A DNA stretch of 64,000 nucleotides from Verrucomicrobiia bacterium. Lineage in GTDB: Bacteria; Verrucomicrobiota; Verrucomicrobiia; Limisphaerales; UBA11358. The stretch spans positions 56,627 to 120,626 of the forward strand of contig JANWKE010000075.1 in the NCBI GenBank assembly GCA_025451535.1. The letters are read 5' to 3'. How positions within the stretch are numbered: the stretch's first letter is position 1; every line of letters begins with the position of its first letter. The notes under the pieces are model-generated. The model was not told where the DNA came from. It saw nothing but the letters and a program-made list of their open reading frames with translations, and did no database searches. The position numbers and the translations under genes are program-made. This document shows positions 1-19,789 of this stretch, in pieces.

Positions 1-82
1 GGTCCGTTGGCTGTTGCTGGGGGCGTTGCCCGGCGGTGTGCTGGCGTTGGGGGGTCTGGTCTGGCTGCGTCGCAGAAAATAA
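1..82 (+). CDS. 3' end of a GldG-like ABC-transport auxiliary protein (partial)
   Basis: Frame from position 2 reads VRWLLLGALPGGVLALGGLVWLRRRK*, a C-terminal TM helix plus basic tail typical of GldG-family proteins upstream of DUF4340 genes. The stop TAA (80-82) overlaps the next ATG (TAATG). Confidence 0.6.
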   Translation, partial: VRWLLLGALPGGVLALGGLVWLRRRK

Positions 83-1872
83 TGAACTCGAAAAACACCC
101 TTGTCTGGCTGGTCGTCGCCGCGGCGTTGTTCGCGTTTATTTTTGCGTTTGAACATTTCCTGCGGCCGAACGACACGGAACCGCCCGCTATCCTGCCGGA
201 CTTGCAGCCCGCAACGGTCACCAGCATTCAGGTGATTCCCGCCTACGCACTCGAAATTCGGGCCGACCACACAAACGGCGCATGGCTGCTGACCAGGCCC
301 ATAGCTTATCCGGCGCAATCCGCCGCCGTGGAAACCTTGTTGGCAGCGTTGCAGAAACTCACGCCCGCCATTCGCATCAGCGCCGGGGAACTGCGCGAAC
401 AACGCGGCGCGGAAGCGGATTATGGTTTCGAAACCCCAAGTGTCTCGCTCGTGGTTGAAGCCGGTGACCAGCGCTGGCAGCTCCTGGTGGGCAATAAAAC
501 CGCGCCCGGCGACCAGGTTTTTCTGCGCGTCGTCGGGACCGACGGCGCGTTTGTTACGGACGCCGACTGGCTGAAATTCCTTCCGCACTCGGCCAACGAC
601 TGGCGCGACACGGCGCTCCTGGATTTCAACGGCAATGCGCCCGATTGGATTGTTTTGACCAACGGCACGAAAGTCATCGAACTTCATCGCAACGCCACCA
701 ATCATCTCTGGCAGATGACCCGTCCGCTCGTGGCGCGCGCTAACAGCAGTCGAATTACCGAAGCCCTCCAGCGCCTCCAAACGGCAAGGGTTTCGCAATT
801 TGTCACCGATAACCCAAAAGCGGATTTGTCCGCGTATGATTTGCAGCCTGCCACTTTGGATTTGTGGTTCGGCCGGGAAACAAATTTCGTCACCGCCATC
901 CATGCCGGCAAAAGTCCGGCAACCAATTCGTCGTTGGTTTTTGCGCAGCACGACGGGTGGAACACCATCGTCACCACTGCCAAAGAACCATTATCACCCT
1001 GGTTCGGCACGGTGAACGACTTTCGCGATCCGTACCTGTTGGAGCTGTCTGCGCCCGTTGCTGAAATCGAAGTACGCGGGAAAAATGATTTTACCCTGCA
1101 AAGACAGGGCACCAACGACTGGCGCGTGGTCGGGGAAAATTTTCCAGCCGACGCCGGAAGCGTACAACAATTCATCAGGCTCCTCGCCAATCTCCGCGTG
1201 ACGGAATTCGTCAAAGACGTCGTGACGACACCGGACTGGCCGGCCTATGGACTGGCAACACCCGCCTGGCAAATTACGTTGTTTTCGGCGGCAGGTAATA
1301 CCAATGCGGTCATCGGGCAACTGCTGTTCGGCGCGACGCAGACCAATGAAGTTTACGTGCGGCGCGCAGACGAAGACTTTGTTTACGCCATTCCACTGGA
1401 GGATTTTAACCAGTTGCCGGAAGCCGGCTGGGAGCTCCGTAATCGGCGGATTTGGAGTTTTTCGGAAGCCGATGTCGCGCAAATCACCATTCATCAGAAC
1501 GGCAAGACCCGGCAAATGATTCATCATGGACCCAATCAATGGTCGCTGGCTCCCGGTTCACAGGGGATTATTGTCCCGGCGGCCATCGAGGAAACCGTAC
1601 ATCAGTTTGGCGAACTCACCGCCGCCGCCTGGCTTGCTCATGACGCAGCCGAAAGCCAGAAATTTGGATTCAAACCGGGAAATCTTTCCATCACCCTCGA
1701 ACTTAAAAACGGTACGAAAGACACTGTGGATTTTGGCATCTCAGGCTCGCAAACCGCTGTGGCCGCCGTGACGCTGAACGGCGAGCAGTGGGCCTTTGTG
1801 TTTCCGCCGGTGCTTTATCAGTTCGTCTTGAGTTATCTGTCCCTTCCGGTCCCGCCAAGCGGGACACCCTGA
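82..1872 (+). CDS. DUF4340 domain-containing periplasmic protein with about three repeated domains
   Basis: N-terminal TM anchor (MNSKNTLVWLVVAAALFAFIF) and repeated W-x-L/M-T-x-P...L..L...YG[FL]-x-P units. Start moved from 7 to ATG 82 because it is translationally coupled to the upstream stop. Confidence 0.8.
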   Translation: MNSKNTLVWLVVAAALFAFIFAFEHFLRPNDTEPPAILPDLQPATVTSIQVIPAYALEIRADHTNGAWLLTRPIAYPAQSAAVETLLAALQKLTPAIRISAGELREQRGAEADYGFETPSVSLVVEAGDQRWQLLVGNKTAPGDQVFLRVVGTDGAFVTDADWLKFLPHSANDWRDTALLDFNGNAPDWIVLTNGTKVIELHRNATNHLWQMTRPLVARANSSRITEALQRLQTARVSQFVTDNPKADLSAYDLQPATLDLWFGRETNFVTAIHAGKSPATNSSLVFAQHDGWNTIVTTAKEPLSPWFGTVNDFRDPYLLELSAPVAEIEVRGKNDFTLQRQGTNDWRVVGENFPADAGSVQQFIRLLANLRVTEFVKDVVTTPDWPAYGLATPAWQITLFSAAGNTNAVIGQLLFGATQTNEVYVRRADEDFVYAIPLEDFNQLPEAGWELRNRRIWSFSEADVAQITIHQNGKTRQMIHHGPNQWSLAPGSQGIIVPAAIEETVHQFGELTAAAWLAHDAAESQKFGFKPGNLSITLELKNGTKDTVDFGISGSQTAVAAVTLNGEQWAFVFPPVLYQFVLSYLSLPVPPSGTP

Positions 1873-1873
1873 T

Positions 1874-4525
1874 ATGCGCGATGAAACTGGCTTCTGGCGG
1901 CGGTGCCGGACGCTGCTCCGCCGTTTACGCCGCCTGCTCATTTTCCTGGTTCTCGTTTTGATTTGCGCCATTGGCTGGCTCAACCAAATCGGTCTGCCGG
2001 ATTTCCTAAAACGACCGCTCGTCGAAACGCTACGGGCGCGTGGCGTTGAATTGGAATTTGCCCGCTTGCGCCTGAGTCTACGGCACGGGTTGGTGGCCGA
2101 CGACGTTCATATCGGCCGCGCCGACAAAGCGGAAAGTCCAACGCTCTCGCTTCGGCAGGTTCAATTGCGGCTGGATTATCCGGCGTTGTTGCATCGCCAA
2201 TGGCAGATTGACGGGCTGGTGCTGCGACAGGGCAAATTCGTCTGGCCGCTCTCACTGACCAACGCGCTGGTGCTGGACCAGGTTCAGTCCGATTTGAGGT
2301 TTCAAACCAATGATATCTGGTCGCTCGATAATTTCCAGGCGGACTTCGCCGGTGCCAAGCTAAGATTGTCGGGTGATATCGCTCATGCCTCGGCCCTGCG
2401 CAACTGGGAAGTTTTCCACGGCCAAACGACCAACGCCGCCGCGTGGCGGATTCGCTGCCAAAAATTTGCGGATACGCTACGCCAAATTCATTTCGTGGGC
2501 ACGCCCCAACTGAGCCTGACCATCAATGGTGACGCGCGCGATGCCCGCTCCTTCCGGATCCACCTGACGGTCAACGCCGCCGGCGTTGACACTCCCTGGG
2601 GCCGCTCGACCAACCTTCAACTGGCTGTCAGATTGATGGCCTTCACTGGAGCACCGGCCCATTCAGAACCCTCCTGGGGCTGGTGGACCAATCTTCAACC
2701 CTATCGCATTGAATGGACTGCCCAGGTGGAGAACCTGGAATCGGAACAGGTAAACGCCCGGATCGTCAAGTGCGGCGGGTTCTGGCGCGCGCCGGAACTG
2801 GCAGTGACAAATTTTTCCGCCGAACTGGGCGGCGGCGGGCTGGATGCCGGCGCCCAATTGAACGTGGGTACCCGCGCATTCACGTTCACCAATTCATCGC
2901 ATCTTGACCCACAGGCCATTGCGGTGTTGTTGACGGAGAAAACCCGCAAGTGGCTGGCGCAGTTTTCGTGGACGCAACCGCCAAATTTGCGGGCGGCCGG
3001 TTCACTGATTTTGCCGGCGTGGACGAATCGCCAGCCCGACTGGCGCGGTGAAGTGCAACCCACGGTACGGCTTACCGGCGAATTTGCCGCAACCAACGGC
3101 GCCTTTCGCGACATAGCCATTGATTCGGCGCAGGGAAGTTTTTCCTATTCCAATCTGGTCTGGCGGCTGCCCGATCTCGCCCTGACCCGCCCCGAAGGGG
3201 GGCTCGCCCTCGCCGACGTCGAGGACGACGCCACCAAAAATTATCACTGGCATGTGCAAGGGGCACTGGCGCCGTACGCCCTCCGGCCCTTGCTGGCCAC
3301 AAACCGCGCCGAGCGGGCCATGGACCTGTTCACGTTTACCCGGCCACTGTCACTGGACGCAGACGTATGGGGTCGTTTGTATGATGATGACAGCATTGGC
3401 GCCCGGGGACACCTGGCCCTGACCAACTTCACGATCCGCGGCGAGATCGTGAATACGGTTGAAAGTGACTTCGGCTACACAAACCGGTTTCTTGAATTTT
3501 TCCAGCCACGTCTGCAAACCGGCGCGCAAAGGATGAGAGCTGACGGGGTTGCGGTGGATTTTAATGCGTGGCGGATTTATTTTACCAACGGGTTCAGCAC
3601 CGCGGACCCGCGCGCGGTGGCCCGCGCCATCGGCCCGAAGGCCGGCGAGGTCATGGACCCCTATCGCTTTGCCATACCGTGCCCGGCGCGGGTGAACGGT
3701 TACGCGCCGTTGCGCGGCATGGAGGACGCGGATTTATGGTTTGAGGCGGAAGGCGCGCCGTTCGAGTGGTTGAAGCTGAAAACTTCACGCATTACCGGAC
3801 AAATTCATTGGCTGGGTCAAACACTCGTTTTGACCAATCTGATGGCCGCGTTTTACGGTGGGGACGCGAACGGTTTTGCTCACTTTGATTTTCGTCCCAA
3901 ACCGGGCGCGGATTTTGAATTCACCGCCAATGCCAGAAACGCGAGTTTGCATCTGCTGGCAACGGACCTGGCGTCGCCCACCAACCATCTGGAAGGTGTG
4001 TTGAGCGGACGGTTTGTAATGACGAGCGCGAGCTCGTGGGATTGGCACACCTGGAACGGTTACGGGCAGGTCAACCTGCACGATGGATTAATCTGGGACG
4101 TTCCCATTTTTGGCATTTTATCGCCGGTGTTGGATGCGATCATGCCCGGTCTGGGCAGCAGCCGCGCAACGGATGCGGCGGCAAAATTCGGTATGACCAA
4201 TGGTGTGATCTTCTCGAACAATCTGGAGATCCGTTCAATGATGATGCGGCTGCAATATGCCGGCACGGTGGATTTGCGAAGCCACGTGGACGCCCGCGTG
4301 ACGGCTCAATTGCTCCGTGACACCTGGGTGGTCGGCCCGCTCCTGAGCACGGCGTTGTGGCCGGTCAGCAAGCTGTTTGAATACAAAATCACCGGCACCC
4401 TGCAGCAGCCACAAAGCGAGCCGGTTTACATTCCCAAAGTTCTGCTCCTGCCATTGCACCCGATCCGCAGTTTGGAGGAGATGCTTTCCAATGGCGTTGA
4501 CACCAACGCAGTGCCGTTAAGGTAA
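1874..4525 (+). CDS. AsmA-like (YhdP/TamB-type) envelope-bridging protein
   Basis: 883 aa with an N-terminal basic segment plus TM anchor, a long beta-rich body, and an AsmA-type C-terminus (G-x-V-D-L...FEYKITGTLQQP). Confidence 0.7.
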   Translation: MRDETGFWRRCRTLLRRLRRLLIFLVLVLICAIGWLNQIGLPDFLKRPLVETLRARGVELEFARLRLSLRHGLVADDVHIGRADKAESPTLSLRQVQLRLDYPALLHRQWQIDGLVLRQGKFVWPLSLTNALVLDQVQSDLRFQTNDIWSLDNFQADFAGAKLRLSGDIAHASALRNWEVFHGQTTNAAAWRIRCQKFADTLRQIHFVGTPQLSLTINGDARDARSFRIHLTVNAAGVDTPWGRSTNLQLAVRLMAFTGAPAHSEPSWGWWTNLQPYRIEWTAQVENLESEQVNARIVKCGGFWRAPELAVTNFSAELGGGGLDAGAQLNVGTRAFTFTNSSHLDPQAIAVLLTEKTRKWLAQFSWTQPPNLRAAGSLILPAWTNRQPDWRGEVQPTVRLTGEFAATNGAFRDIAIDSAQGSFSYSNLVWRLPDLALTRPEGGLALADVEDDATKNYHWHVQGALAPYALRPLLATNRAERAMDLFTFTRPLSLDADVWGRLYDDDSIGARGHLALTNFTIRGEIVNTVESDFGYTNRFLEFFQPRLQTGAQRMRADGVAVDFNAWRIYFTNGFSTADPRAVARAIGPKAGEVMDPYRFAIPCPARVNGYAPLRGMEDADLWFEAEGAPFEWLKLKTSRITGQIHWLGQTLVLTNLMAAFYGGDANGFAHFDFRPKPGADFEFTANARNASLHLLATDLASPTNHLEGVLSGRFVMTSASSWDWHTWNGYGQVNLHDGLIWDVPIFGILSPVLDAIMPGLGSSRATDAAAKFGMTNGVIFSNNLEIRSMMMRLQYAGTVDLRSHVDARVTAQLLRDTWVVGPLLSTALWPVSKLFEYKITGTLQQPQSEPVYIPKVLLLPLHPIRSLEEMLSNGVDTNAVPLR

Positions 4526-4539
4526 AACCCAGGCGTGTC

Positions 4540-6855
4540 CTACTGTTTTGGATATGCCACGGCATTGGTATTAACGTAGCCTTCAGGTGACACGGGCTCA
4601 AAAAATCCGCTTCCGGATGAAGAAGCTGAGGGCACCGGCCTGCCCGGCATTGGTTGCGTCTGGGATTGGTCAACCGCATTTTTCGTCGCCCCATCCGAAT
4701 CGGGCAATGAGACGGTGTTGGTATCAACCAAACCATCCTGGGGCACGGGTTGATAAGACGTATTCGGCGGCACAGGATGCAAGTGTTCCCGTCTTTGCTC
4801 CGCGCGCAAGGCCTTGCGCTGCTCCAGCTCGTCGCCCGCCATCGCCGCCGAAATTCCGGGCATACGTTGTTCTTCCTCAGTCGTCTGTGCCGCGGCTTTT
4901 TCAGGAGACCTCAGAATTGTCGGACGCATCAACACCAGTAACTCACTACGCTGGTGGTTGCTGGTACGGCTGCTGAACAGACTGCCCAGGATCGGTATGT
5001 CTTGCAGGAGGGGAACGCCATTTTTGCTCTTGTCCTTTTCCGTACGGATGAAACCGCCGAGGATGATGGTGTCGCGATCGTTGACGGCGACTTCAGAGGA
5101 AAGCTGGCGTTTGTCGGTATTCGGAACGTTGCCTACACCTTGAATAAACGTGCTGCCATTAAGGTCGTCTATTTCCTGACTGATATCCATGACCACCAGA
5201 CCAAACGGATTGATGAACGGGGTCACGTCCAGCGAGATGCCCACTTGCAATTGCGAATACGAGGAACTGGGCCCGCCGCCAATGCCGCTGTTGTAATAAA
5301 CACTGGTGACGTAAGGCACCGTGCTGCCGACGAAGAATTGGGCTTCCTTGGCCTGGGAAGTCTGGATGCGCGGGCGCTGGATGATGGAAACTGTGCTGTC
5401 TGCCGCAGCCGCGGCCACCGCCACGTCCCACGTCGGCCCGATGTTTCCGAAATAGCTAAGGCCACTCCCCAAACTGTTGCCAAAAGCGGAGCTTGCAACC
5501 GCAGTCCCATTGGTGCCGAGCGTACTGTTCAGAAAATCAAAGAAAGACTGACCGTTGTTATAACCGCCGGCACCATTCACTCCCTGGCCGACCGGGCCAC
5601 CACTGAAGTTTTTGGGAGCTTGCGACGCAGACACACCAAAATTCCACCCGCTGTTCACGTTCACGTCCATGATGACCGATTCAATCAGTACCTGCGGCAG
5701 CAACACGTCCAGTTTGGCCACAATGTCCTTGATCGTTTTCATGTCCTCCTTTGTGGCATAGACCAGCAACGAATTGCTTCGTTCGTCGGCGATGATTTTC
5801 GTCGGGCCCATCAGTTGAATTTCACCCTGCCCGCCCCCGGTCGCCGCACGCTGGATGATGGACTGTAATCGCTGGCTGAAAGTATTGCCGCCGCCGGCGC
5901 CGCCGGCAGCCGTTCCAAAGGGCCGTGTGATTTGGCCACCGGGCTGATTGATGCCGCCGGGCTGATACTGATTGCCCGTGTTGCCCATGCTGCCCGTGCC
6001 GCCGAAGGCGCCGCCCCGCGAACTGGGAGTGGTGGCATTGCCGATGGCCGAACTGGAACCGCCGAGGCTGTTCAGGGCATTGGCGATATCGTCCACCATG
6101 GCGTACTTGATCGGAATCACCTCGGAAATAAATTCCTCCGGTAAAATCACGTCCACCTTGCTGATAAACTCCAGCATCCGTTTGACGTTTTCGGCGTAGT
6201 CGCGAAGGATGAGGATGCCATTGCTGTCAATCGGGAAAACCCCGTTCGGAATCTTGCCAAATTGTTGCACGACGGGGGCAAGCTCGCTCGGCTTGATGTA
6301 TTTCAACTGGACAATGTGCGTGACGTATTGGCCGACGTCCGGCAGTTGGGTGGCCGTCTGGTTGTTGAATGCCGCACCTTCCTGGCTGGCTTGCGCCACC
6401 GGCACGGCCTTCACGAACTTATCGCCGATGTTGATCAGCGCGATGCCGTTGAGCGCGAGCACGCCCTGCAACGCCTGGACCACTTCGTCTTTGGTCAGGG
6501 GAGTCTCCGTGTAGAGAACGATCTTCGCCTGGGGCAAACCCGCCCGCAAAAGGGTGCGCCCCACATAACGGGCGTAAACGTCAAGAACTTGATCCACATC
6601 CACGCCTTGAAAATTGATGTCGCCGGCGGGGACCATTTGTGCCGAGGCAGCCGCCGGAAGTGAAGCATCAACCGGCTGGCCGGCAGTCGGCGATGACGGC
6701 AGTCCGGGCGTGGGCGCGGGCGGATTGTTGGCCGGGTTGCCGGCCGGGACTCCAGGACGTTGCGGCACGGGACGCATGCCGGGCGGCATTTGCGCCCGCA
6801 GGCCCAGGCTGGTTAAAAGCACGAGCAGGACGAACGTGGTCGTTTTCACAGTCAT
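4540..6855 (-). CDS. gspD: Type II secretion system secretin
   Basis: Signal peptide, N-domains (IADERSNSLLV), QVLIESVI, and the secretin C-terminal motifs GVPLLQDIPILGSLF and SELLVLMRPTI. Confidence 0.9.
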   Translation of the reverse strand: MTVKTTTFVLLVLLTSLGLRAQMPPGMRPVPQRPGVPAGNPANNPPAPTPGLPSSPTAGQPVDASLPAAASAQMVPAGDINFQGVDVDQVLDVYARYVGRTLLRAGLPQAKIVLYTETPLTKDEVVQALQGVLALNGIALINIGDKFVKAVPVAQASQEGAAFNNQTATQLPDVGQYVTHIVQLKYIKPSELAPVVQQFGKIPNGVFPIDSNGILILRDYAENVKRMLEFISKVDVILPEEFISEVIPIKYAMVDDIANALNSLGGSSSAIGNATTPSSRGGAFGGTGSMGNTGNQYQPGGINQPGGQITRPFGTAAGGAGGGNTFSQRLQSIIQRAATGGGQGEIQLMGPTKIIADERSNSLLVYATKEDMKTIKDIVAKLDVLLPQVLIESVIMDVNVNSGWNFGVSASQAPKNFSGGPVGQGVNGAGGYNNGQSFFDFLNSTLGTNGTAVASSAFGNSLGSGLSYFGNIGPTWDVAVAAAAADSTVSIIQRPRIQTSQAKEAQFFVGSTVPYVTSVYYNSGIGGGPSSSYSQLQVGISLDVTPFINPFGLVVMDISQEIDDLNGSTFIQGVGNVPNTDKRQLSSEVAVNDRDTIILGGFIRTEKDKSKNGVPLLQDIPILGSLFSSRTSNHQRSELLVLMRPTILRSPEKAAAQTTEEEQRMPGISAAMAGDELEQRKALRAEQRREHLHPVPPNTSYQPVPQDGLVDTNTVSLPDSDGATKNAVDQSQTQPMPGRPVPSASSSGSGFFEPVSPEGYVNTNAVAYPKQ

Positions 6856-7427
6856 TTCAATGTTGCAGTTGTGTTCTTCGAATTACCTTTGGGCGCGGCC
6901 TTCTGATAACTGGCGATCAGCCGGATGTTGGCGTTAAGATGCTGGTGCGCCGGGTCGGGCTGCAATTCCAGATCATGCACGCGAATCATGGAAGCGTCGG
7001 AACCGAGCTTGTAAAGAAAATCCACCAGTTGCTGGTCGCCGGCGGTGACGTTGATGCTTTGGGCCACTTCAACGAAAAATTCATTCGTGCGAGTCATCTG
7101 GCGGGACATGTTGACGATGCCAACACCACTCCGCGCGGACTGCGAATCAATTGTGCGGATGAAATTAATCGCCTGGTCTTCCGGGGCAACCGCCCCGCCC
7201 TGGCCTTCCATCTTTTTCACCAACACCCGGTAGTTGGCCGACTGCGCAATGGTTGTCTGGTACAGCTTTTGTTTGCGCAGGGTGTCATCCAATCGATATT
7301 GCAGCCGGCTCCAATCGGAAAAGTGCGGCCAGATGAAGACGTAATTTAACACCAGAAACAAAACCACCAGCACCGCCACCGCCAACCGGCGCTCCAGCGG
7401 ACGCAATTGGGCAAAATACTTTTTCAC
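6852..7427 (-). CDS. GspM/PilO-like assembly platform protein
   Basis: LRPLERR followed by a single TM helix, coiled coil and ferredoxin-like end (GDQQLVDFLYKL). Lies directly upstream of the secretin with a 4-nt overlap. Confidence 0.7.
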   Translation of the reverse strand: MKKYFAQLRPLERRLAVAVLVVLFLVLNYVFIWPHFSDWSRLQYRLDDTLRKQKLYQTTIAQSANYRVLVKKMEGQGGAVAPEDQAINFIRTIDSQSARSGVGIVNMSRQMTRTNEFFVEVAQSINVTAGDQQLVDFLYKLGSDASMIRVHDLELQPDPAHQHLNANIRLIASYQKAAPKGNSKNTTATLK

Positions 7428-8800
7428 TTTGCTTCCTCCTGCTTGTGTTTGAGCATGAGCGAGAATTGCCAGCTCACCGTATTGACGCTGGTGCGAAAAG
7501 TCGGGGTCTCGCCGCCATCAAACATGGGTTGGCCGTCCACCTCCGCCTTGCGCACCGCGTCATAAAAATGGTCGGTGATCTGGGAGATTTGGTCCTGCGG
7601 GACGGTTCCGTTCAGGGACAATTGCTGGCCATCGGCAAAACTCATCCGTTGCAACGTCAGGCCGGCGGGCAATTGCTCGGCCACAATCTTCCAGCAATCC
7701 AGCGCCGCGTACTTCAAATCCTGCCGTTGTTGGAGCACCTCGTACCGCGCCTTGAGCTGCAGCGCATTCGTGTAACTGCCATTCAACGCCGTCACCTGTC
7801 GCACTATCTGGTTTACGTGATACCCCAGCACCGTCGTCGCACAAAAATAAATCGTCACCCAGATGACGTATAAAATTCCTGTCGCCACCAGACCCCGCAG
7901 CCACAATCGATCCACGAATTGCTGGTGATAACGCGCGGAAAATTCAGGAGGCAACAAAGTGCTGCGCACATCGCTTTGCGTTGAACGCCGGGCGGTCCGC
8001 GCCGCCAATTCCGCGAACGGCAACGGCTTTGTCACCTGTACCGGCTCGCCGAGGCTCGCGCGCAGGGCGTTTTCCCATTCGCCGGCGACCGCGCCGTCGG
8101 CGACCAGATGCCAGGTCGGTGGGGCAGTGAGCCAACCCTCCAATTCGCCCGCCCAGGTCAGTTGGGCCAACTGGTCCTTCAGACTTTTTTCGCGATCGCC
8201 GGTCGGCGGCAAAACCACAAAACTTAAACTCCGCAACGCGCCGTTGCACCACCACGCCACCAGCGCGACATTCTGTCCGGTAAAGGCAGCGGGATAAATC
8301 CATGCGCCGTCTTCCGTCGCGGGGGTGGTTTCCAATTCATCCAACATGGGCGCTTCGAGCCGGTCGGCCAGATAGCCCTGACCTTCAAGCTTGCCGAGAA
8401 ATTCCTCAACCGCATGGCGGGCGGCGATGACGACAACGACCGTTTGCAGATCGGCCGCGGCTTGCGGCAACACATGAAGCATCCACACCACCTGCGCCAC
8501 CGGGAGGGGCGACAGCTTCTCCAACTGCAATTCCACCATGGCCAGCGTTTCTTCGAAGTTGCTCCGGGGCAACTCGATGACGCGTAGAAATACGTCTTCG
8601 GGCGGCAACCAGGCGACATTCAACCGGGGCTGCCACAGGGAGCGCCACGACTTGGCCACCAGGTTAAACGGCAATGGTTCACCAGGCGCGCCAGCATGCT
8701 CGCGATTGAACGCGAAGCCGCCGCCCCTGGCCTCGAATTGCCAGAGACGCTGCGCGTCGGCACCGACGTGGAGGATGTTGCAAAATTGCCAGCGCGGCAT
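7424..8800 (-). CDS. GspL/PilM-PilN-like assembly platform protein
   Basis: Cytoplasmic actin-like part (LPPEDVFLRVIELP...QLEKLSPLP), LLPPEF before a TM helix, and a PilN-like periplasmic end. Sits between gspE and gspM. Confidence 0.7.
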   Translation of the reverse strand: MPRWQFCNILHVGADAQRLWQFEARGGGFAFNREHAGAPGEPLPFNLVAKSWRSLWQPRLNVAWLPPEDVFLRVIELPRSNFEETLAMVELQLEKLSPLPVAQVVWMLHVLPQAAADLQTVVVVIAARHAVEEFLGKLEGQGYLADRLEAPMLDELETTPATEDGAWIYPAAFTGQNVALVAWWCNGALRSLSFVVLPPTGDREKSLKDQLAQLTWAGELEGWLTAPPTWHLVADGAVAGEWENALRASLGEPVQVTKPLPFAELAARTARRSTQSDVRSTLLPPEFSARYHQQFVDRLWLRGLVATGILYVIWVTIYFCATTVLGYHVNQIVRQVTALNGSYTNALQLKARYEVLQQRQDLKYAALDCWKIVAEQLPAGLTLQRMSFADGQQLSLNGTVPQDQISQITDHFYDAVRKAEVDGQPMFDGGETPTFRTSVNTVSWQFSLMLKHKQEEAK

Positions 8801-8814
8801 AAATCAATCTCCGC

Positions 8815-8905
8815 TTCCTGATTTCCGATTCCCGACTTTGGCAGCACGAACAACCCGCGAACAACGCGCGGCGATCGGCGATCGGCAATCGGCAATCGGC
8901 AGTTT
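8815..8905. repeat. Intergenic short tandem repeats (two heptamer tracts and an 11-mer pair)
   Basis: TTCCTGA-TTTCCGA-TTCCCGA (8815-8835), CGAACAACCCG-CGAACAACGCG (8847-8868), and GCGATCG x2 plus GCAATCG x2 (8871-8898). Confidence 0.75.
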
Positions 8906-8907
8906 CA

Positions 8908-10659
8908 TCACGCCTTGACCCACATTTCGGTTTTGGTGTCGCCGATGAGCGCCTCCATGTGTTCCTCGATCTGGGTGACACGCAGAACCTCCTCAATGGT
9001 TGTCTCGCCGGCCTTCACCTTGTTCCAGCCGTCGGTCCGCAGGGTGCGCATTCCCTGTTCGATGGCCCGGGCCGCGATGGTTGAAGCCGGGGCGCGGTTC
9101 AGAATCAACGGCCGTATGGATTCGTTCAGAATGAGCAGTTCATAAATGCCCTTGCGCCCTTGATAGCCGAGTTGCCGGCAATCTTCGCAACCGGCACCGC
9201 GCCAGAATTTCGCCGTGTCAATTTCCCTTTCGGGAAAACCGATTTTTTGCAGGTAATCACGCTCCACCTTCTGTTCGGTCTTGCAGTGCGGGCAGATGGT
9301 GCGGACGAGGCGCTGGGCCATCACCGCTTCCACCGACGAGGCCACCAGGAACGGTTCAATGCCCATATCAATCAGCCGCGTGAACGCGCTGGGCGCGTCG
9401 TTGGTATGCAGCGTGCTGAACACCAGGTGTCCCGTCAGCGACGCACGGATGGCGATTTCCGCCGTCTCCAAATCACGGATTTCCCCGACCATGATTACGT
9501 TCGGGTCCTGGCGCAAGATATGGCGCAAGCCCATCGCAAACGTCAACCCGATCTCCGGCCGCACGGCGATTTGGTTGATGCCCTTGAGTTCGTATTCGAC
9601 CGGTTCCTCAATGGTGATGATGCGCTTGTGAACGGAATTGATGGCGCTCAAAAAGGCGTAGAGTGACGTGGACTTGCCGGAACCGGTCGGGCCGGTGACG
9701 AGAAAGATTCCGTGCGGCTTGACAATGATTTCACGGATCATCGCCTCGTCCTGCGGTGCAAAACCCAGTTTGTCGAGGCTCAGGAAGATTTTCCCGCGCG
9801 TGAGCAGGCGGAGTGAAACGCTTTCACCATAGACCGTCGGCACGGTCGAGACCCGAATGTCAATTTCCTCGCCCTTGATGCGGACGTTGATACGGCCATC
9901 CTGGGGCAGGCGCTTTTCGGAGATGTTCATGCCGCTCATCACTTTAATGCGCGATATGAGGGCGGCTTGAAACCGTTTGAGTTGCGGCGGCATCGGCGTC
10001 TGATGCAGGATACCGTCAATGCGATAACGGATCCGCAGTTCGTCCTCCGCCGGCTCAAAATGAATGTCCGTCGCACGGTCCTTGTGGGCTTCCCAAATGA
10101 TCTGGTTGACGAATTTGATGACGCTGGCCTCCTGGTCGTCCTCGGTAATCTCCTTGTCGGTGGCGATTTCCAGTTCCATCGGCTCGCTCTCGCCAAGTTC
10201 GTCCAGCGTTTCCGCTCCGACGCCGTAGTATTTTTTGAGCGCCTTTTCGATTTCCGTTTTCGGCGCCAGCGCGAACTGCACCGGGCTGTGCGCGTCGAAC
10301 CGCACGGCGTTCATCATTGCCGCATCAAACGGATCGCTCACCACCACTTGCAGCGCGTCGTCGTTCACGGCGGTGGGGAGCACGAAATATTGAAATGCCA
10401 CCTTGGTGGAAAGTTTGTTCCGCGCCTCCGGCGGGATGGTGTGCTGGTGCAGGTCCACATACGGCCAGCTGAGCGCATTCGCCAGCCGCTGCAAAAAAAC
10501 GTCCTCGGCCAGACCACGCTCACGCGCAACGAATGACAACAACGACTCCGTCGAGCCGTTGTCCGCCGCCGCGCGCCACGCCTTGCGCCAATCGTCAAAC
10601 TGCCCGGGAGTCGTCTCGGCAACCGCCGCAACCAGATTTTTTACTGAGTTAAAACCCAT
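8908..10659 (-). CDS. gspE: Type II secretion/type IV pilus assembly ATPase (GspE/PilB family)
   Basis: Walker A GPTGSGKST, LRQDPNVIMVGEIRD, STLHTND, and the tetracysteine motif CPHC...CEDC. Confidence 0.92.
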   Translation of the reverse strand: MGFNSVKNLVAAVAETTPGQFDDWRKAWRAAADNGSTESLLSFVARERGLAEDVFLQRLANALSWPYVDLHQHTIPPEARNKLSTKVAFQYFVLPTAVNDDALQVVVSDPFDAAMMNAVRFDAHSPVQFALAPKTEIEKALKKYYGVGAETLDELGESEPMELEIATDKEITEDDQEASVIKFVNQIIWEAHKDRATDIHFEPAEDELRIRYRIDGILHQTPMPPQLKRFQAALISRIKVMSGMNISEKRLPQDGRINVRIKGEEIDIRVSTVPTVYGESVSLRLLTRGKIFLSLDKLGFAPQDEAMIREIIVKPHGIFLVTGPTGSGKSTSLYAFLSAINSVHKRIITIEEPVEYELKGINQIAVRPEIGLTFAMGLRHILRQDPNVIMVGEIRDLETAEIAIRASLTGHLVFSTLHTNDAPSAFTRLIDMGIEPFLVASSVEAVMAQRLVRTICPHCKTEQKVERDYLQKIGFPEREIDTAKFWRGAGCEDCRQLGYQGRKGIYELLILNESIRPLILNRAPASTIAARAIEQGMRTLRTDGWNKVKAGETTIEEVLRVTQIEEHMEALIGDTKTEMWVKA

Positions 10660-13977: not shown

Positions 13978-14220
13978 AATCGGGCTCTCGCGGTGGCGAT
14001 TGGTACCAGTGACGTTGGCATCAATGTCATCTGGCACTTGTGATGGCTCAATGTCAGGGCCGCCTTATCGGCGGCCGAATAAAAATCCCGCCATCGCCAG
14101 CGGGCCAGTCTCATGACGTCAGTACAAGCAGGAACCCGAAAACTCCCTGGAACTTTTGTTTTTAAAAAATGGCACTTGCCGTGTGGTTGTCGGTCGTCAC
14201 ATTTTAGACAATTCTATGCT

Positions 14221-15090
14221 ATGAAAATTGAATCGGAAGACTTTCGCGTCCGCGAAGGCAAAGAGGTCAAATTGAAAGATTGGCCGACAAGGGTGAAACC
14301 GTTTTACAGATCCAAGGAGCATTGCCAGGAAATGCTCAGCGACCACATCAAGGTACTCAGCCGGCAACAAGGCCTGCTCTACGCTCACAACCGCTACGCG
14401 GTGCTGTTGATTTTTCAGGCGATGGACGCCGCCGGCAAGGACGGCGCCATCAAACATGTCATGTCCGGTATCAACCCGCAGGGCTGCGAGGTTTTCAGTT
14501 TTAAACATCCCGGCACCGAGGACCTGGCACATGATTTTCTCTGGCGCACGACCTGTCGTCTGCCGGAACGCGGTCGCATCGGTATTTTCAACCGCTCCTA
14601 TTACGAGGAGGTGCTTATTGTGCGCGTGCATCCGGAGATTCTTCGTGCCCAACAGATTCCGGAGGAATTGCTTGATAAAAAAAGGATCTGGGAAAAGCGC
14701 TATTGCTCCATTCTGGATTTGGAAAAACATCTGCACCGCAACGGCACATGCGTCGTTAAATTCTTCCTGCACCTGTCCAAGGACGAACAGCGCCAGCGGT
14801 TTCTTGAACGCATTGACAACCCGGAGAAAAACTGGAAATTCAGCCAGGCCGACCTCGCTGAACGGAAATTCTGGAAGGACTACATGAAGGCTTACGAAGA
14901 TTGCCTTGGAGCCACCAGTACCGACCATGCGCCGTGGTATATTGTTCCAGCCGACGACAAGGAAAACGCCCGGCTCATCATTTCACAAATTATCCTCGAT
15001 ACATTGAAATCGCTGAAAATGAGTTATCCGGAACCCGGCAAGGCGCACCGCCGGGAATTGCAGTCTGTCCGCCAATTGCTCGCAAAATAA
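14221..15090 (+). CDS. ppk2: Polyphosphate kinase 2 family protein (class III-like)
   Basis: [39 protein letters not shown] and [11 protein letters not shown]. Confidence 0.92.
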
Positions 15091-15102
15091 AAAAAGCCTG
15101 CC

Positions 15103-16365
15103 ATGACCGGCTTGATTGCCACCGTGTTTCCGGATTTTCACCAGCGGTCAGTGATTTTGGCGATTTTTGTGATTACTTACACCGGAATCGCCATGGGCCA
15201 TGTGCCGGGCTTGAAACTCAATCGCGTCGGCATCGCCTTGCTCGGTGCTATTGCGATGATGATTTTCGGCGATGTTACCACCGCCGATATCGTTTCTTAC
15301 GTCAACTGGCCCACGATTTTCTTGCTGTTCGGGTTTTTTGTCATATCGGCACAACTCCGGCTGTCGGGTTTTTATGATTTCGTGGCCGGCGGCATTGCCG
15401 CGCGGCTCGGACACCCTGCGCGATTCCTGCTGGTTTTGATGGCCGTCACCGGTGTCCTTTCGTCGTTTCTAAATCATGATATTGTTTGTTACGTTTTTAC
15501 GCCCATCGTCGGGGCAGCGCTGCTGCGCAGACAACTCAACCCTGTTCCATTTTTGATTGCCCTGGCCATCGCCAGCAACATCGGTGCGGCGGCGACCCTC
15601 ATCGGTAATCCCCAGGACATGATGATCAGCCAGGTCGCGCACCTCGATTTCGGCCGATACATTCTTTGGACCTCCGTTCCGGTGGCTTTGGCGATGGCTG
15701 CCGCCTGCGGAATCATCTGGCAACTGTCGCGGGAACGGCTGCAACTCGCCGCACCCGTTCCCAAGGAGTTGAACCAGCCAACCTATCCCTTCAACCGGCC
15801 CCACTCCATCAAAGGGATTATCATTCTGGCCGCGGCCGTCGGTTTATTTTTCACGCCGTTGCCCAAGGAAATCATCGCTTTGGCGGCCGCCGGCATTCAT
15901 CTGGCGAGCACCAAATTTCGCACCGATGATTTGCTGAGATTGGTGGAATGGCCAATTCTCGTTTTGTTCATGGGCTTGTTTGTTGTCACCGGCGCTTTTC
16001 AATCCACCGGTTATGGTGATCAAACCGTGCAACGGCTGGCCCACAGCGGTTTTAACCTGAACGCGCCGGCTGTTTTGGCCCTGACGACCGCGGGCTTGTC
16101 CAACTTGATCAACAACTCGGCGGCGGTAATGCTTTTGCTCAAGGTGGTCAATCTCTCGCAACCGAGCGCAGCTTACATCCTGGCGCTGGCGAACAGTTTT
16201 GGTGGGAGTCTCATTATCATCGGCAGCGTTTCCAATATTATCGTGGTTCAACAGGCCCGCGCGCAGGGGATCAAAATTTCCTTCCGGGACTTTGCCCGGC
16301 TGGGTATTCCGGTGACGCTGGCCGCGCTGGCCGGGCTCCTCATCTGGATTACCCTGGCAGCTTAA
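15103..16365 (+). CDS. Anion permease (ArsB/NhaD/CitMHS superfamily)
   Basis: Multi-TM protein with LNRVGIALLGA, SNIGAAATLIGNPQD and GSVSNIIV motifs. Confidence 0.82.
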   Translation: MTGLIATVFPDFHQRSVILAIFVITYTGIAMGHVPGLKLNRVGIALLGAIAMMIFGDVTTADIVSYVNWPTIFLLFGFFVISAQLRLSGFYDFVAGGIAARLGHPARFLLVLMAVTGVLSSFLNHDIVCYVFTPIVGAALLRRQLNPVPFLIALAIASNIGAAATLIGNPQDMMISQVAHLDFGRYILWTSVPVALAMAAACGIIWQLSRERLQLAAPVPKELNQPTYPFNRPHSIKGIIILAAAVGLFFTPLPKEIIALAAAGIHLASTKFRTDDLLRLVEWPILVLFMGLFVVTGAFQSTGYGDQTVQRLAHSGFNLNAPAVLALTTAGLSNLINNSAAVMLLLKVVNLSQPSAAYILALANSFGGSLIIIGSVSNIIVVQQARAQGIKISFRDFARLGIPVTLAALAGLLIWITLAA

Positions 16366-16571
16366 ACGAAAAACCCGTGGAAAACAGGAAGCTGCGGGGC
16401 GACAGGCGCGTTGGCGTGCCTCATTCCCGTAGCTGTATTTTCCCTGATTTTTTGTGAAACATTTTCCCGGGCAGCATCTTCATTCTCTGCACGTGTTGAA
16501 TGTATAAGACCCGATCCAAAATATTTCAGCATAGATAATCCTAATCTCTCTGTCTTGTCAGATTCATCATT

Positions 16572-18392
16572 ATGACTGAGCAATTCCAGGCACGCAGGTT
16601 CGTTGTGGCTTTCCTTGCGGCAGTAGTCCTGATGATCTCGCCCAGGTCCGAAGCCGTTTCCATCGTGTCGGGGCCCTCCTTTACTCCCGCAACCAACGCG
16701 CCGCTGGCAGGGCTGCTCCAGTTGACCACCGATGTGGACTCCAGAATCGGCGTCCTGGTCAGCGATGGGACGGATCTCTGGGAAAGGGATTTTTATGATT
16801 ACACTACGAATCATTCGCTGCCGCTGCTCGGATTCAAGCCCGATCAGTCGAACCAGATTCAGGTTACCGTTTACGACAAAGACCGGAATGCCTGCACGGC
16901 CCCACAACTGTTGACTTTTGTCACCGCGCCGCTGCCGACGAATTTCCCCACCTACACCGTCCTGACAAATGACCCGGGCATGATGGAGCCGGGGTATCTG
17001 TTGTTCATGATTATGAACCGAAAAGTGCCCAACGTGGGTTACATTACCATGATGAACAATTCCGGCGAGGTGGTCTGGTATTGCCCATATCCGTCGACGC
17101 TGGATGTTGATGTGCGACAAATGGAAGATGGCGATTTGTTTGTTCAACAGCAAAGTCCATCGAACAGTTTCCTGGAGATCAACATGCTGGGAGAAACGGT
17201 CAGAACCTGGAATGCGCCGGCGGGTTACCCGGTAAACGTTCATGAAGGCCTCGTGACCGATCACGGCACCATTCTCTATTTGAGCGATGTCAAGGAGATC
17301 GTGTCCAACTTTCCGAGCAGCGATACCATCTCAAACGCTCCGTTGGGAACCAGCAATATTGACGACAATCCGGTGGTCGAAATCTCATCCACCAACTCGG
17401 CGCTCCTCAACACGTGGTCGCCGCTGAGCCTGGGTCTGGTGGATCCGACGCGCGTAACCTATCTCACCTACGGCATCGCCTCCGGCTCTCCGGACGGAGT
17501 GGATAATGAGCATGCCAACGCGATCCTCGACGATACCAATGACAGTTCCATCATTCTTTCTTTGCGCAACCAAAACGCGGTCGTCAAATTCTCCCGGGTG
17601 ACGGGACAATTGAAATGGATTCTCGGGCCGCCGGCAAACTGGGGGACGAACTGGCAGCCATATCTGCTGTCACCGGTGGGCACGCCGTTTGATTGGAATT
17701 ATGGCCAGCATGCGCCAGAACTCACACCTGAAGGCACCTTGTTGGTTTACAACGACAACAACTACCAGGCCAGCCCTTACGGCCCGACTGCGCCCGACCA
17801 GGACAATCACAGCAGCGCCATTGAGTATGGCATCGATGAAACCGACAGGGAGGCGTCCGAGGTCTGGAATTCCACGTGGCAAACCAATCAAGACCGGCTC
17901 TTTACACCTTATGTAGGAAGAGTGCAGTGGCTTCCCCAAACCCGGAATGTCCTGGTGGATTACGGCGCCGTCACCTATGTCAATGGCGCCCACCCCAGTT
18001 CTTACGCACCCAGTGCGTCCATGGTCCGGATCATGGAATTTACACATGATCCGGTGCCTCAGTTGGTATTTGATCTTTCCTTTTTCGACTATGGTAACAC
18101 CAGCCCGGGTTATGCCGGGTATATCTGCTATCGCGCCTATCAGCTTCCCGATCTTTATGTCCACCCTGCCGAGCCCGTCACCGACCTTGTCATGGGTAAC
18201 GACAATCAAATACCCATTCTGGAGTTCCCAGCGGACCCGGCTTGCAGCTATCTTATCCAGGCTTCAACTGACCTGACGAACTGGATGACCATTGGCACAC
18301 CGGTACAGGAAGGAGGCATCGGTGATTATGATTTTGAGGACATGAACGCAAACCGGTTCACAACCCGCTTTTATCGCGTCGTCACGCAGTAG
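16572..18392 (+). CDS. Secreted arylsulfotransferase (ASST) family protein
   Basis: Signal peptide, Ig-like N-domain (NAPLAGLL...HSLPLLG), the motifs HEG, EHANA, SLRNQ, LKWILG and GQHAP, and a C-terminal ASTDL.NW...RFYRV domain. Confidence 0.82.
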   Translation: MTEQFQARRFVVAFLAAVVLMISPRSEAVSIVSGPSFTPATNAPLAGLLQLTTDVDSRIGVLVSDGTDLWERDFYDYTTNHSLPLLGFKPDQSNQIQVTVYDKDRNACTAPQLLTFVTAPLPTNFPTYTVLTNDPGMMEPGYLLFMIMNRKVPNVGYITMMNNSGEVVWYCPYPSTLDVDVRQMEDGDLFVQQQSPSNSFLEINMLGETVRTWNAPAGYPVNVHEGLVTDHGTILYLSDVKEIVSNFPSSDTISNAPLGTSNIDDNPVVEISSTNSALLNTWSPLSLGLVDPTRVTYLTYGIASGSPDGVDNEHANAILDDTNDSSIILSLRNQNAVVKFSRVTGQLKWILGPPANWGTNWQPYLLSPVGTPFDWNYGQHAPELTPEGTLLVYNDNNYQASPYGPTAPDQDNHSSAIEYGIDETDREASEVWNSTWQTNQDRLFTPYVGRVQWLPQTRNVLVDYGAVTYVNGAHPSSYAPSASMVRIMEFTHDPVPQLVFDLSFFDYGNTSPGYAGYICYRAYQLPDLYVHPAEPVTDLVMGNDNQIPILEFPADPACSYLIQASTDLTNWMTIGTPVQEGGIGDYDFEDMNANRFTTRFYRVVTQ

Positions 18393-18456
18393 TACCAGGA
18401 CCTGTTGCTGCTCCCCTCTTTCAGTTGTGGTGCATTGGGGCCGGAAATACGTGAAT

Positions 18457-18561
18457 CGGAGGGAGGGAACGTCCGGGAACGATTTATGGCACAGTTCAAT
18501 TGGAGCCATGGATGACAAATTTCGACATTGTGAAATGATAGACGCGCCATCCCTCCTTCCG
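18457..18561. repeat. Degenerate intergenic inverted repeat
   Basis: CGGAGGGAGGGA (18457-18468) pairs with TCCCTCCTTCCG (18550-18561) with one mismatch. Confidence 0.35.
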
Positions 18562-18598
18562 CCTCGACTCCGGGTGCCGTCGAGCTTACGTTGCAGAA

Positions 18599-19789
18599 AT
18601 GAACCAACTTCTTATCGGCCTGGTGGGTGCGTTGCTGGCAACGAACCAGCCGCAGGCCGTCAGCAATTTGATCCAGCAAAATGCCGGCGTCTCGGTCAAT
18701 CTTCCCAATCCGAACGATCCGGCCGAGAAGGAACTTGACCGGTTAATGACCGAAGACGATGCGGCCATGGCCGAGGTGGACAAATGGATTCAGGACAACA
18801 ATGCCTTCGCCGCCAAAGGCGCGGGTGAATCTAAAGCGGAACTTAACAAACGCATCATGGCCCGGCTGGATGTTGTCCGCAAGAACTACGATGACTTTTT
18901 GCGTCGTCACCCGGATTTTGCCCACGGACATCTGGCCTACGCCAGTTTTTTGAACAACATCGGCGACGAGGAGGCCGCCAAAGTTCAGAACGAAAAAGCC
19001 CGGGAACTGGATCCAAAAGATCCGGCGGCCTGGAACAATCTCGGCAATTATTACGGCGAAAACGGCCCCATCACCAACGCTTTTGTGTACTTTGCCAAAG
19101 CCATTGAGCTGGACCCGGCCGAATCGATTTATTATCAGAATCTTGCGGTAATGGTTTATCTCTATCGCGTGGATGCCAAGGCCTTTTACCATATCGACGA
19201 GCAGCAGGTCTTCGACAAGTCACTCGCACTTTATCGCAAGGCCCTGCAACTCGACCCGGATAATTTCCCGCTCGTGACCGACTACGCGGAGAGCTATTAC
19301 GGTATCCGCCCGCTCCGCACCAACGACGCGTTGGTGGCCTGGACCAATGCGCTTCAGGTCGCTCACGACGACGTCGAGCGTGAGGGTGTTTATATTCATC
19401 TCGCCCGGATTAAAATGCTGGCCGGGCGTTACACCGAAGCCCGCGCGCAACTCGAGGCCGTAACCAATGCGACGTATGCCGACCTCAAACAAACCGTCGA
19501 ACGCGCCATTACCTGGCGGGAAAACGAGGCAACCAATTCCATCGTTGGCGGCGACTCAACAAATACACCGGGTTTTCCGGCAAAAAAATTTCCTGCGCCG
19601 ACGAATGCTTTGCCCGCGGTCACGAATGCGATGACCGTCTCAACCAACTCATTGCTGGTGCTCACCAATGGGATGTTCGCTCTCACCAACCCGCCGGTTT
19701 TTTCGCCAAAGATCGTCAACACTATGACAAATGTGCCGCCGGCGCCTCCGAAGACGTCTCATTTGGTCACAGTCTTGAATGCTTTTTAG
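18599..19789 (+). CDS. Exported TPR-repeat protein with a TN-rich low-complexity tail
   Basis: Short hydrophobic N-terminus and TPR motifs (ARELDPKDPAAWNNLGNYY, AIELDP, ALQLDP). Confidence 0.8.
   Translation: MNQLLIGLVGALLATNQPQAVSNLIQQNAGVSVNLPNPNDPAEKELDRLMTEDDAAMAEVDKWIQDNNAFAAKGAGESKAELNKRIMARLDVVRKNYDDFLRRHPDFAHGHLAYASFLNNIGDEEAAKVQNEKARELDPKDPAAWNNLGNYYGENGPITNAFVYFAKAIELDPAESIYYQNLAVMVYLYRVDAKAFYHIDEQQVFDKSLALYRKALQLDPDNFPLVTDYAESYYGIRPLRTNDALVAWTNALQVAHDDVEREGVYIHLARIKMLAGRYTEARAQLEAVTNATYADLKQTVERAITWRENEATNSIVGGDSTNTPGFPAKKFPAPTNALPAVTNAMTVSTNSLLVLTNGMFALTNPPVFSPKIVNTMTNVPPAPPKTSHLVTVLNAF

Follow-up and report, generated by a model that had tools for sequence, protein, structure and literature searches.

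Why should the exported proteins of one bacterium carry threonine followed directly by asparagine so much more often than asparagine followed by threonine? The question arises from a 64,000-nucleotide stretch of a Limisphaerales genome (hereafter the window; G000:C75:56627-120626), which belongs to a 4.40 Mb assembly of 188 contigs with 57% G+C and 97.9% completeness. A first-pass annotation, made from the letters of the window, had counted the dipeptide Thr-Asn (TN) and its reverse (NT) by hand in several proteins and had proposed that TN is a modification sequon. We find that Thr-Asn, in this order and without a gap, is under selection as a motif at the protein level in the Sec-exported, periplasm-exposed proteins of one order of Verrucomicrobiae. 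The proposal that it acts as a sequon is partly supported by the sequence evidence described below.

Thr-Asn in the window and across the proteome

The expected number of each dipeptide was calculated for every protein from its own composition, as nT×nN/L. The strongest carrier in the window is an AsmA/YhdP-like protein of 883 amino acids with an N-terminal anchor (1874..4525, plus strand; Pfam YhdP and AsmA), which has 17 TN and a single NT where 2.6 are expected (39 Asn; Poisson p = 2.4e-9). Its TN sites are encoded by five types of codon pair (ACCAAC 8, ACCAAT 5, ACAAAC 2, ACAAAT 1, and ACGAAT 1), so the earlier remark that the codons vary holds. An exported TPR protein of 396 amino acids (18599..19789, plus strand; Pfam TPR families) has 13 TN and two NT (expected, 2.1). 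An arylsulfotransferase (ASST) family protein with a signal peptide (16572..18392, plus strand; PF05935, E = 2.5e-51) has nine and two (expected, 3.6), and a DUF4340 protein of 596 amino acids, also with a signal peptide (82..1872, plus strand; PF14238, E = 7.9e-46), has eight and three (expected, 2.4). The cytoplasmic controls are low, as had been claimed: TrpE (20855..22408; Pfam Chorismate_bind) has no TN, the GspE ATPase (8908..10659, minus strand; Pfam T2SSE) has one (expected, 1.0), an open reading frame (ORF) of 1455 amino acids (34395..38762) has six (expected, 3.4), and the other cytoplasmic ORFs of the window have zero or one. The earlier hand counts for the AsmA-like, TPR, ASST, DUF4340, TrpE, and GspE proteins were all reproduced.

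The analysis was extended to the proteome with our own self-trained hexamer log-odds gene finder (3,660 genes, 87% coding density) and our own rule-based calls of signal peptides, lipoboxes, and transmembrane segments. The 1,340 proteins with a signal peptide contain 4,152 TN where 2,132 are expected, an observed/expected ratio (O/E) of 1.95 (z = 43.8). TN ranks first among the 400 dipeptides of this class, and the next, NG, reaches a z of 14.3. The proteome thus holds about 4,150 exported TN sites, some 2,000 beyond the expectation from composition. The excess is similar in signal-peptide proteins that have no further transmembrane segment (1,144 proteins; 3,564 observed, 1,813 expected; O/E 1.97) and in those that have one (196 proteins; 592 and 321; O/E 1.84). 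It is far smaller in proteins with no export signal (1,620 proteins; 1,093 and 931; O/E 1.17) and in multi-pass proteins (494 proteins; 431 and 351; O/E 1.23). Cytoplasmic proteins shorter than 400 amino acids give 1.03–1.06. Lipoproteins have an O/E of 2.09. In the loops of multi-pass proteins, TN stands at 1.25 outside and 0.95 inside, a weak test that depends on a crude positive-inside rule.

The excess depends on both order and adjacency. Under the same expectation, NT has an O/E of 0.78 in exported and 0.83 in cytoplasmic proteins, and SN (0.84) and TQ (0.66) are not raised in the exported class. Exported proteins are richer in Thr (7.1% versus 5.3% in cytoplasmic proteins) and in Asn (5.5% versus 3.5%), and the NT value rules out composition or local Thr-Asn richness as the source of the bias. 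With one to three residues between Thr and Asn, the O/E is 0.97–0.99. Gapped motifs and classical sequons were likewise ruled out (T-x-N, 0.98; N-x-S/T, 1.05; the Bacteroidota motif, 0.94), and only three of the 17 AsmA sites are N-x-S/T, which confirms that the classical sequon does not explain the bias. Thr precedes 15.0% of Asn residues in exported proteins and 6.6% in cytoplasmic proteins.

Nor does the excess reside in the DNA or in a few unusual proteins. The hexamer ACNAAY occurs in frame 0 at 2.63 per kb in exported genes versus 0.77 in cytoplasmic genes; off-frame, the exported and cytoplasmic rates are 0.78 versus 1.03 (frame 1) and 0.23 versus 0.24 (frame 2). Thr and Asn codon choice is identical in the two classes, and together these results rule out a DNA motif or codon-pair effect. 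The O/E lies between 1.61 and 2.14 in every length class of exported proteins and is flat along the protein (1.8–2.2 in all deciles). The median is 1.99 for the 286 exported proteins with an expectation of at least 2. Among the 398 with an expectation of at least 1.5, 73 fall below 1. The values form a single peak near 2, so the excess cannot come from a handful of giant or repeat proteins. At Poisson p < 1e-3, 61 exported proteins stand out versus six cytoplasmic ones.

The residues around TN are also biased. Relative to local background, the second position after Asn (N+2) is depleted in Arg (0.27), Lys (0.47), and Gly (0.63) and raised in Pro (1.50), Val (1.47), Trp (1.34), Ile (1.33), and Phe (1.29). 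At the same position of the control dipeptides SN, TD, AN, TS, and NT, Arg stands at 0.94–1.08, so its loss is specific to TN. Gly is raised at positions −1 and +1, and the flanks contain few charged residues and many aromatic and aliphatic ones. The site can be read as T-N-x-(hydrophobic or Pro), with Arg depleted four-fold at N+2. Two TN rarely stand close together: distances of 2, 3, and 4 residues occur at 0.10, 0.17, and 0.39 of the within-protein null, and distances of 7–19 at 1.05–1.95 times it.

No single structural context accounts for the sites. An AlphaFold2 (AF2) model of the AsmA-like protein was built from a 61-sequence alignment (mean predicted local distance difference test score, 72.9), and its 17 TN sites were assigned by hand. 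Seven lie inside predicted strands, two place a strand-final Thr before a hairpin (T536 and T775), four are in loops, one is at a helix end, and three are in low-confidence, disordered, or terminal stretches. This mixture rules out one secondary-structure context. In the TPR protein, four TN open helices, and the C-terminal tail (residues 312–378; 19532..19735) carries eight TN at spacings of 7 or 14 residues, in units of the form TN-x-hydrophobic-hydrophobic-x-x. Three TN at exact 7-residue spacing occur in six windows of the whole proteome, three of them in this tail. The same spacing is seen in two proteins of more than 1,100 amino acids each (G000:C187:22338-26282 and G000:C45:54947-58117), whose C-terminal ∼45 residues are similar (S-T-N-L ... 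T-N-W ... T-N-x-F-D) and may represent a domain common to both. Our rules placed one of them in the cytoplasm, which probably means that it is exported by another route or that its start was miscalled.

Distribution, conservation, and exceptions

The same pipeline was run on 100–300 kb samples of other genomes; most samples are small, and related genomes are not independent of one another. Public records of the order are titled Limisphaerales or Pedosphaera. A genome of the same genus (G011) has 115 exported TN where 67 are expected (O/E 1.73). In other families of the order, the O/E is 3.02 in G105 (65 and 22), 1.68 in G120, 1.63 in G112, 1.37 in G016, 1.31 in G102, 1.20 in G116 (14 and 12), 1.02 in G110 (300 kb; 61 and 60), 0.99 in G081, and 0.84 in G100 (300 kb; 81 and 97); pooled over six other families, it is 1.52. 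Verrucomicrobiota of other orders or classes have values of 0.64 (G080), 0.89 (G074), 0.71 (G026), and 0.79 (G043), and these four outgroups together give 103 observed and 138 expected (0.74). Escherichia coli K-12, from another phylum, gives 27 and 39 in 150 kb (0.69). Cytoplasmic TN has an O/E of 0.4–1.2 in single samples and 0.71–1.01 in pooled groups. TN ranks first among dipeptides in G011, G105, and G120 and second or third in G016 and G112, and it is outside the top five in every low-bias or outgroup sample. The TN bias is thus restricted to one order of Verrucomicrobiae. Since the baseline elsewhere is below 1, enrichment relative to relatives is nearer 2.6-fold than 2-fold. NT is mostly below 1 as well in the exported proteins of the sampled genomes.

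A further 68 related loci were collected with six search patterns, two of which contained TN, a choice that biases the AsmA gene and not its neighbors. Their exported proteins have an O/E of 2.4–3.9 in all four bins of AsmA identity, whether or not the AsmA cluster is removed. The outcomes that the first-pass annotation had named as able to overturn the bias, as far as examined, all came out in its favor: the excess outlasts a per-protein composition correction, is much reduced in cytoplasmic proteins, and does not appear in E. coli or in the orthologues and proteomes of other Verrucomicrobiota. Several AsmA-like genes with 35–88% identity were found under the titles of unrelated taxa (L176, L179, L194, L202, L206, L209, L210, L217, L223, L230, L234, and L235; the titles include Limnocylindrales, Acidiferrales, Sulfopaludibacter, Bifidobacteriaceae, Acidoferrum, Binatia, Limnocylindria, and Kapaibacterium). 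These records are probably mislabeled or contaminated bins.

In 120 database homologues of the AsmA-like protein (53–98% identity), there are 1,660 TN and 233 NT where 376 are expected, and at 13 of the 17 sites of the window protein, 83 or more of the homologues also have TN. In 41 genomes, each from a different family of the order, seven or more TN are present in 37 orthologues (range, 7–21), with 0–6 NT; the four low ones are those of G081 (5), G089 (4), G103 (3), and G117 (3). Partial orthologues outside the order have two (G043) and one (G074). Orthologues at the base of the order or beyond it have between one and five. The TN of the 41 orthologues occupy 98 distinct alignment columns; nine recur in 20 or more of the sequences and 51 occur only once, pointing to a conserved core with continuing lineage-specific gain. 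Conservation within the family is 0.82 for the Asn of TN versus 0.53 for other Asn (p = 0.0009), and 0.79 for its Thr versus 0.66 for other Thr (p = 0.07). Where a conserved TN column holds something else, SN is commonest (61 cases), and low-TN lineages often keep the Asn.

Retention was measured in 270 best-hit alignments (35–75% identity) of exported proteins of G000 with those of relatives. At 1,394 sites, TN was retained in 60%; the values for comparison are 16% for NT, 29% for SN, 29% for TD, and 39% for NG. Relative to single-residue rates, TN ranks first of 274 dipeptides; most of this set comes from the AsmA cluster. Once the AsmA, DUF4340, and GldG-like proteins are left out (116 alignments of 62 proteins remain), TN is retained in 53% and still ranks first, of 171 (ratio 2.03).

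The AsmA-like and DUF4340 genes close a five-gene module (G000:C75:53505-61151; window 1..4525 and upstream) that encodes an ABC ATPase, an ABC permease, a protein that we take to be GldG-like, DUF4340, and the AsmA-like protein. Its makeup suggests an envelope transporter in which an ABC exporter is joined to an AsmA-like bridge. The module is syntenic in G100 (G100:C6:18917-27129; 32–69% identity), where the bias is limited to a few proteins that include the DUF4340 and AsmA-like ones. The G100 sample also contains a Thr/Asn-rich ORF of 2,865 amino acids (G100:C6:36084-44681) with no homologue in G000. It has four NT and no TN where 12.8 are expected, a depletion as striking as the enrichment elsewhere.

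Some exported proteins are systematic exceptions: RND pumps, secretins, TolC-like channels, and twin-arginine (Tat) substrates. In the window, these are a GspD-like secretin (4540..6855, minus strand; Pfam Secretin) with three TN, six NT, and 2.7 expected, and an AcrB-family RND pump (22413..25901, minus strand; Pfam ACR_tran) with no TN, four NT, and 1.9 expected. The paralogues in the proteome agree. Five RND pumps have 5 TN (9.1 expected; O/E 0.55), five secretins 13 (13.9; 0.94), and seven TolC-like OEP proteins 6 (7.7; 0.78), and the cytoplasmic GspE-like ATPases have 13 in 13 paralogues (12.5; 1.04). The first-pass annotation had listed the RND pump and its adaptor together as lacking enrichment. 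This holds for the pump and needs correction for the adaptor: that of the window (26149..27171) has an expectation of only 0.1 and says nothing, and eight adaptor paralogues in the genome have 16 TN (7.4 expected; O/E 2.15). Together with two ORFs that have no Pfam match, the secretin and the GspE ATPase make up a minus-strand cluster (4540..10659) like those for type II secretion or type IV pili, which starts immediately downstream of the AsmA-like gene and is convergent with it.

The Tat substrates were defined in two ways. A loose twin-arginine pattern matched 31 proteins, 29 of them long enough to score, which contain 27 TN and 24 NT (expected, 24.0). Restricting the set to the 18 that match [STNG]-R-R-x-F-[LIVMF] dropped 11, including ASST, whose N terminus is Sec-like. 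These 18 canonical Tat proteins have 10 TN and 16 NT where 15.7 are expected (O/E 0.64; Poisson p = 1.2e-5 versus the Sec rate).

Candidate readings and candidate enzymes

What selects for TN? An ordered, adjacent pair with its own flanking exclusion, selected among the soluble and lipoprotein Sec substrates of one lineage and not in excess in Tat substrates, points to a single recognition event on unfolded chains. We propose that TN (T-N-x-hydrophobic/Pro, not Arg/Lys) serves as the acceptor site for a general modification that takes place in the periplasm, most likely O-glycosylation at the Thr, and give this reading a probability of roughly 0.45. The Thr of TN would be O-glycosylated on the still-unfolded chain after Sec translocation by a membrane-bound transferase with a TPR substrate-binding domain. 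Such an enzyme would act in the manner of the general O-glycosylation of Bacteroidota and would also resemble TMEM260/TMTC O-mannosylation, which takes place on future beta-strand sequence. A general modification with a TN acceptor is the most economical account and one with direct precedent, and we put its chance only just short of even. Somewhat further from even is the broader proposition that an order of soil and peat Verrucomicrobia, dominated by uncultured members, runs an undescribed modification system, which would use a TN sequon on Sec chains before they fold and have about 2,000 extra sites per proteome. Such a system may have spread from a few envelope proteins, those of the ABC-GldG-DUF4340-AsmA-like module, which carries many TN even in low-bias genomes, to most of the exported proteome. 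Pedosphaera parvula Ellin514 and Limisphaera ngatamarikiensis are members of the order in culture.

Candidate enzymes were sought among membrane proteins with glycosyltransferase or ligase domains. G000 contains matches to PMT_2 (10), Wzy_C (4), and the TMEM260-like family PF11028 (2). TPR repeats follow the membrane domain in six of these proteins, including three PMT_2 proteins. The STT3 family (PF02516) has no match in this 97.9% complete genome, and the same search was positive in four archaea. Two proteins are the leading candidates, neither of them established: a TMEM260-like+TPR protein of 968 amino acids (G000:C172:38215-41121; PF11028, E = 2e-8) and a Wzy_C+TPR protein of 654 amino acids (G000:C75:2847-4811; Wzy_C, E = 2.9e-21), the gene for which lies on the same contig, 52 kb upstream of the window. 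When both were searched against solved structures, they matched only TPR proteins. The first gene is present in 11 of 11 genomes of the order and in none of four outgroups. The second is also in all 11, with a weak partial match in one of the four outgroups, and its orthologues are intact in G105, G116, and G100 (ORFs of 636, 635, and 624 amino acids). O-antigen ligases and polymerases also carry a Wzy_C domain, and this candidate may therefore not act on proteins at all. TN is frequent in the TPR domain of the TMEM260-like protein too (nine, expected 1.9), as it would be in a periplasmic domain. Among 14 control genomes, only that of Bacteroides thetaiotaomicron, a member of the Bacteroidota, was positive for the TMEM260-like family.

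Two further candidates were rejected. A PMT-like protein (G000:C11:38359-40077) was ruled out as the determinant because a search of G105, where the bias is strongest, did not find it. The second TMEM260-like+TPR protein, of 1296 amino acids (G000:C74:14040-17930; PF11028, E = 4e-19), was ruled out as lineage-specific because the outgroup G043 has it at 35% identity. In G110, a low-bias genome, the orthologue of the 968-residue protein is split (G110:C12:137800-141800, locus L247), with query residues 13–117 and 100–968 in different frames, through either a frameshift or an assembly error. The split, near residue 100 and thus ahead of most of the protein, removes the region in which human TMEM260 has its catalytic Asp52, a residue mentioned in a preprint (bioRxiv 10.64898/2026.09.21.753134).

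Several observations weigh against a TN-directed O-glycosylation system. No enzyme tracks the bias cleanly. The earlier idea of profiling GT-C genes (glycosyltransferases of the C type) against the bias yielded one that is restricted to the order, the 968-residue TMEM260-like gene, and that does not cleanly follow the bias within it. This gene is found in 59 of 61 genomes of the order, including the low-bias G100, G081, G103, and G117, and is intact in G100 and G081. It was not found in G020, which is 94% complete and whose AsmA orthologue has 16 TN (expected, 4.4); a 65-kb sample of G020 has seven TN with four expected, too few sites to use. Beyond its restriction to the order, the profile of the gene is uninformative and is confounded with phylogeny. 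Secretins, TolC-like channels, and RND pumps are Sec substrates and show no excess. Actinobacterial O-mannosylation, according to a published account (PMC11727336), is not strictly Sec-dependent and reaches Tat substrates too, which makes the Tat result only suggestive. The seven AsmA sites inside predicted beta-strands, with hydrophobic, charge-poor flanks, are not typical exposed loops. Most O-glycosyltransferases accept Ser, and SN is not enriched here. Without the AsmA cluster, the retention ratio of TN barely exceeds those of SN (1.93) and TD (1.76). In G100, the exported proteome as a whole is unbiased, yet its DUF4340 protein has 10 TN (expected, 1.6) and its AsmA-like protein 10 (expected, 2.4). 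Lastly, gene calls and signal peptides were assigned heuristically and not by a trained predictor, and some genes of the window are visibly misclassified, an error that would dilute the contrasts and not create them.

The alternative that survives best is that TN is a non-covalent folding, capping, or quality-control motif, or that a periplasmic chaperone or protease particular to this lineage binds it. Thr before a turn-forming or helix-capping Asn would aid folding in the periplasm. We consider this rather unlikely, and parts of the evidence suit it well. Low-TN relatives often keep the Asn behind another residue (KN, SN, GN, or DN), which suggests an older structural Asn, and TN stands at strand ends before the T536 and T775 hairpins, at a helix end of the AsmA model, and at the starts of TPR helices. 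Tat substrates fold in the cytoplasm, and their lack of excess fits this explanation equally well. The persistence of TN in the AsmA and DUF4340 proteins of G100, with no bias across its proteome, could mean a structural role there. A folding role has more difficulty with the diversity of the 17 AsmA sites and with the eight TN in the apparently unstructured tail of the TPR protein. A general folding preference should also appear elsewhere, yet the values for the four other Verrucomicrobiota and for E. coli are 0.74 and 0.69. Outer-membrane channels fold outside the cytoplasm as well and have no excess. Strict order, adjacency, and an Arg loss at N+2 that is confined to TN look like one binding site.

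Modification of the Asn, with the hydroxyl read at −1 in place of +2 by an enzyme unrelated to STT3/PglB, is improbable. It would explain why, within the AsmA family, the Asn of TN stands out from other Asn in conservation more clearly than the Thr does from other Thr, why so large a share of exported Asn follows Thr, and why Ser is the commonest substitute for Thr, as in N-x-S/T. Against it, no STT3 family member was matched in G000, and a literature search found no class of STT3-independent enzymes that N-glycosylates in the periplasm. N-x-S/T, moreover, is as frequent in exported as in cytoplasmic proteins (1.05 and 1.03), and few of the AsmA sites conform to it.

That the excess is an artefact or a neutral by-product of composition, repeat or paralogue families, a DNA motif, mutational bias, or gene-call errors is close to refuted: exported proteins are indeed rich in Thr and Asn, the gene calls and localization classes are heuristic and in places visibly wrong, and some sites lie in short periodic stretches, but the expectation is set per protein and NT remains at 0.78, most exported proteins in all length classes are shifted and in frame 0 only, the exact 7-residue triplets amount to just six windows proteome-wide, four Verrucomicrobiota from outside the order (0.64–0.89) and E. 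coli (0.69) stay below 1 in the same pipeline, and the window proteins are backed by Pfam and 120 homologues.

Comparison with known systems

Returning to TN as the acceptor of a general O-glycosylation, a literature search turned up no described TN motif and no general glycosylation in Verrucomicrobiota. If the proposal is true, it would have practical consequences: a two-residue tag for glyco-engineering, a handle on the envelope biology of abundant, barely cultured soil Verrucomicrobia, and a set of candidate transferases that may help to find the missing Bacteroidota enzyme. TN density serves as a crude reporter of periplasmic exposure here, and dipeptide statistics that respect order and treat each export route separately can reveal modification systems with nothing more than genomes. 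Even without covalent modification, such lineage- and compartment-specific selection on an ordered dipeptide has no current explanation.

Among known systems, the general N-glycosylation of Campylobacterota by PglB/STT3 (D/E-x-N-x-S/T) resembles the putative TN system in that a general periplasmic modification falls on a short sequon of Asn and a hydroxyl residue. It differs in that G000 has no STT3 homologue, the hydroxyl residue here stands at −1, adjacent to Asn, and N-x-S/T is not enriched. Enzymes of the PglL/PilO type resemble the Wzy_C protein with a TPR tail, whose distribution over the 15 genomes tested is confined to the order. A point of difference is that PglL enzymes, as a 2025 review states (PMC12871550), have no strict sequon.

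The TMEM260/TMTC family offers a likeness of architecture, as two G000 proteins combine a GT-C-type membrane domain with TPR repeats and fall into the TMEM260-like family of Pfam. For human TMEM260, the preprint cited above describes a degenerate sequon within beta-strands, with the acceptor Thr at its end and Ser tolerated (bioRxiv 10.64898/2026.09.21.753134); many TN sites here fall in or at the end of strands predicted by the model. The human enzyme is specific for IPT domains, with a long degenerate sequon and not a proteome-wide motif of two residues. The bacterial proteins match at the Pfam level only, and their matches to solved structures are confined to TPR.

The closest parallel is the O-glycosylation of Bacteroidota. 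According to the 2025 review (PMC12871550), its motif is enriched in predicted noncytoplasmic proteins, mainly of that phylum, which upholds the analogy drawn by the first-pass annotation. The same source describes it as the sole O-system of bacteria known to follow a sequence motif, with a transferase still undiscovered and a pathway that resembles eukaryotic O-mannosylation. Both motifs are very short, are found in noncytoplasmic proteins, and favor a hydrophobic residue just downstream; each is over-represented within one large lineage, where a minority of members lack the excess. The differences are equally clear. The Bacteroidota motif, D-(S/T)-(A/I/L/V/M/T), occurs 1,326 times in exported proteins here where 1,406 are expected (0.94; cytoplasmic, 0.98), Asn follows the hydroxyl residue in place of an Asp before it, and Ser is not used. 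The lineage here is a single order of Verrucomicrobiae, and TN is known in it from sequence alone. As far as the available sources go, sequon-directed general glycosylation in bacteria has so far comprised PglB N-glycosylation and the Bacteroidota O-system only. If the proposal is true, TN would mark the second sequon-directed general O-glycosylation system known in bacteria, found from sequence statistics.

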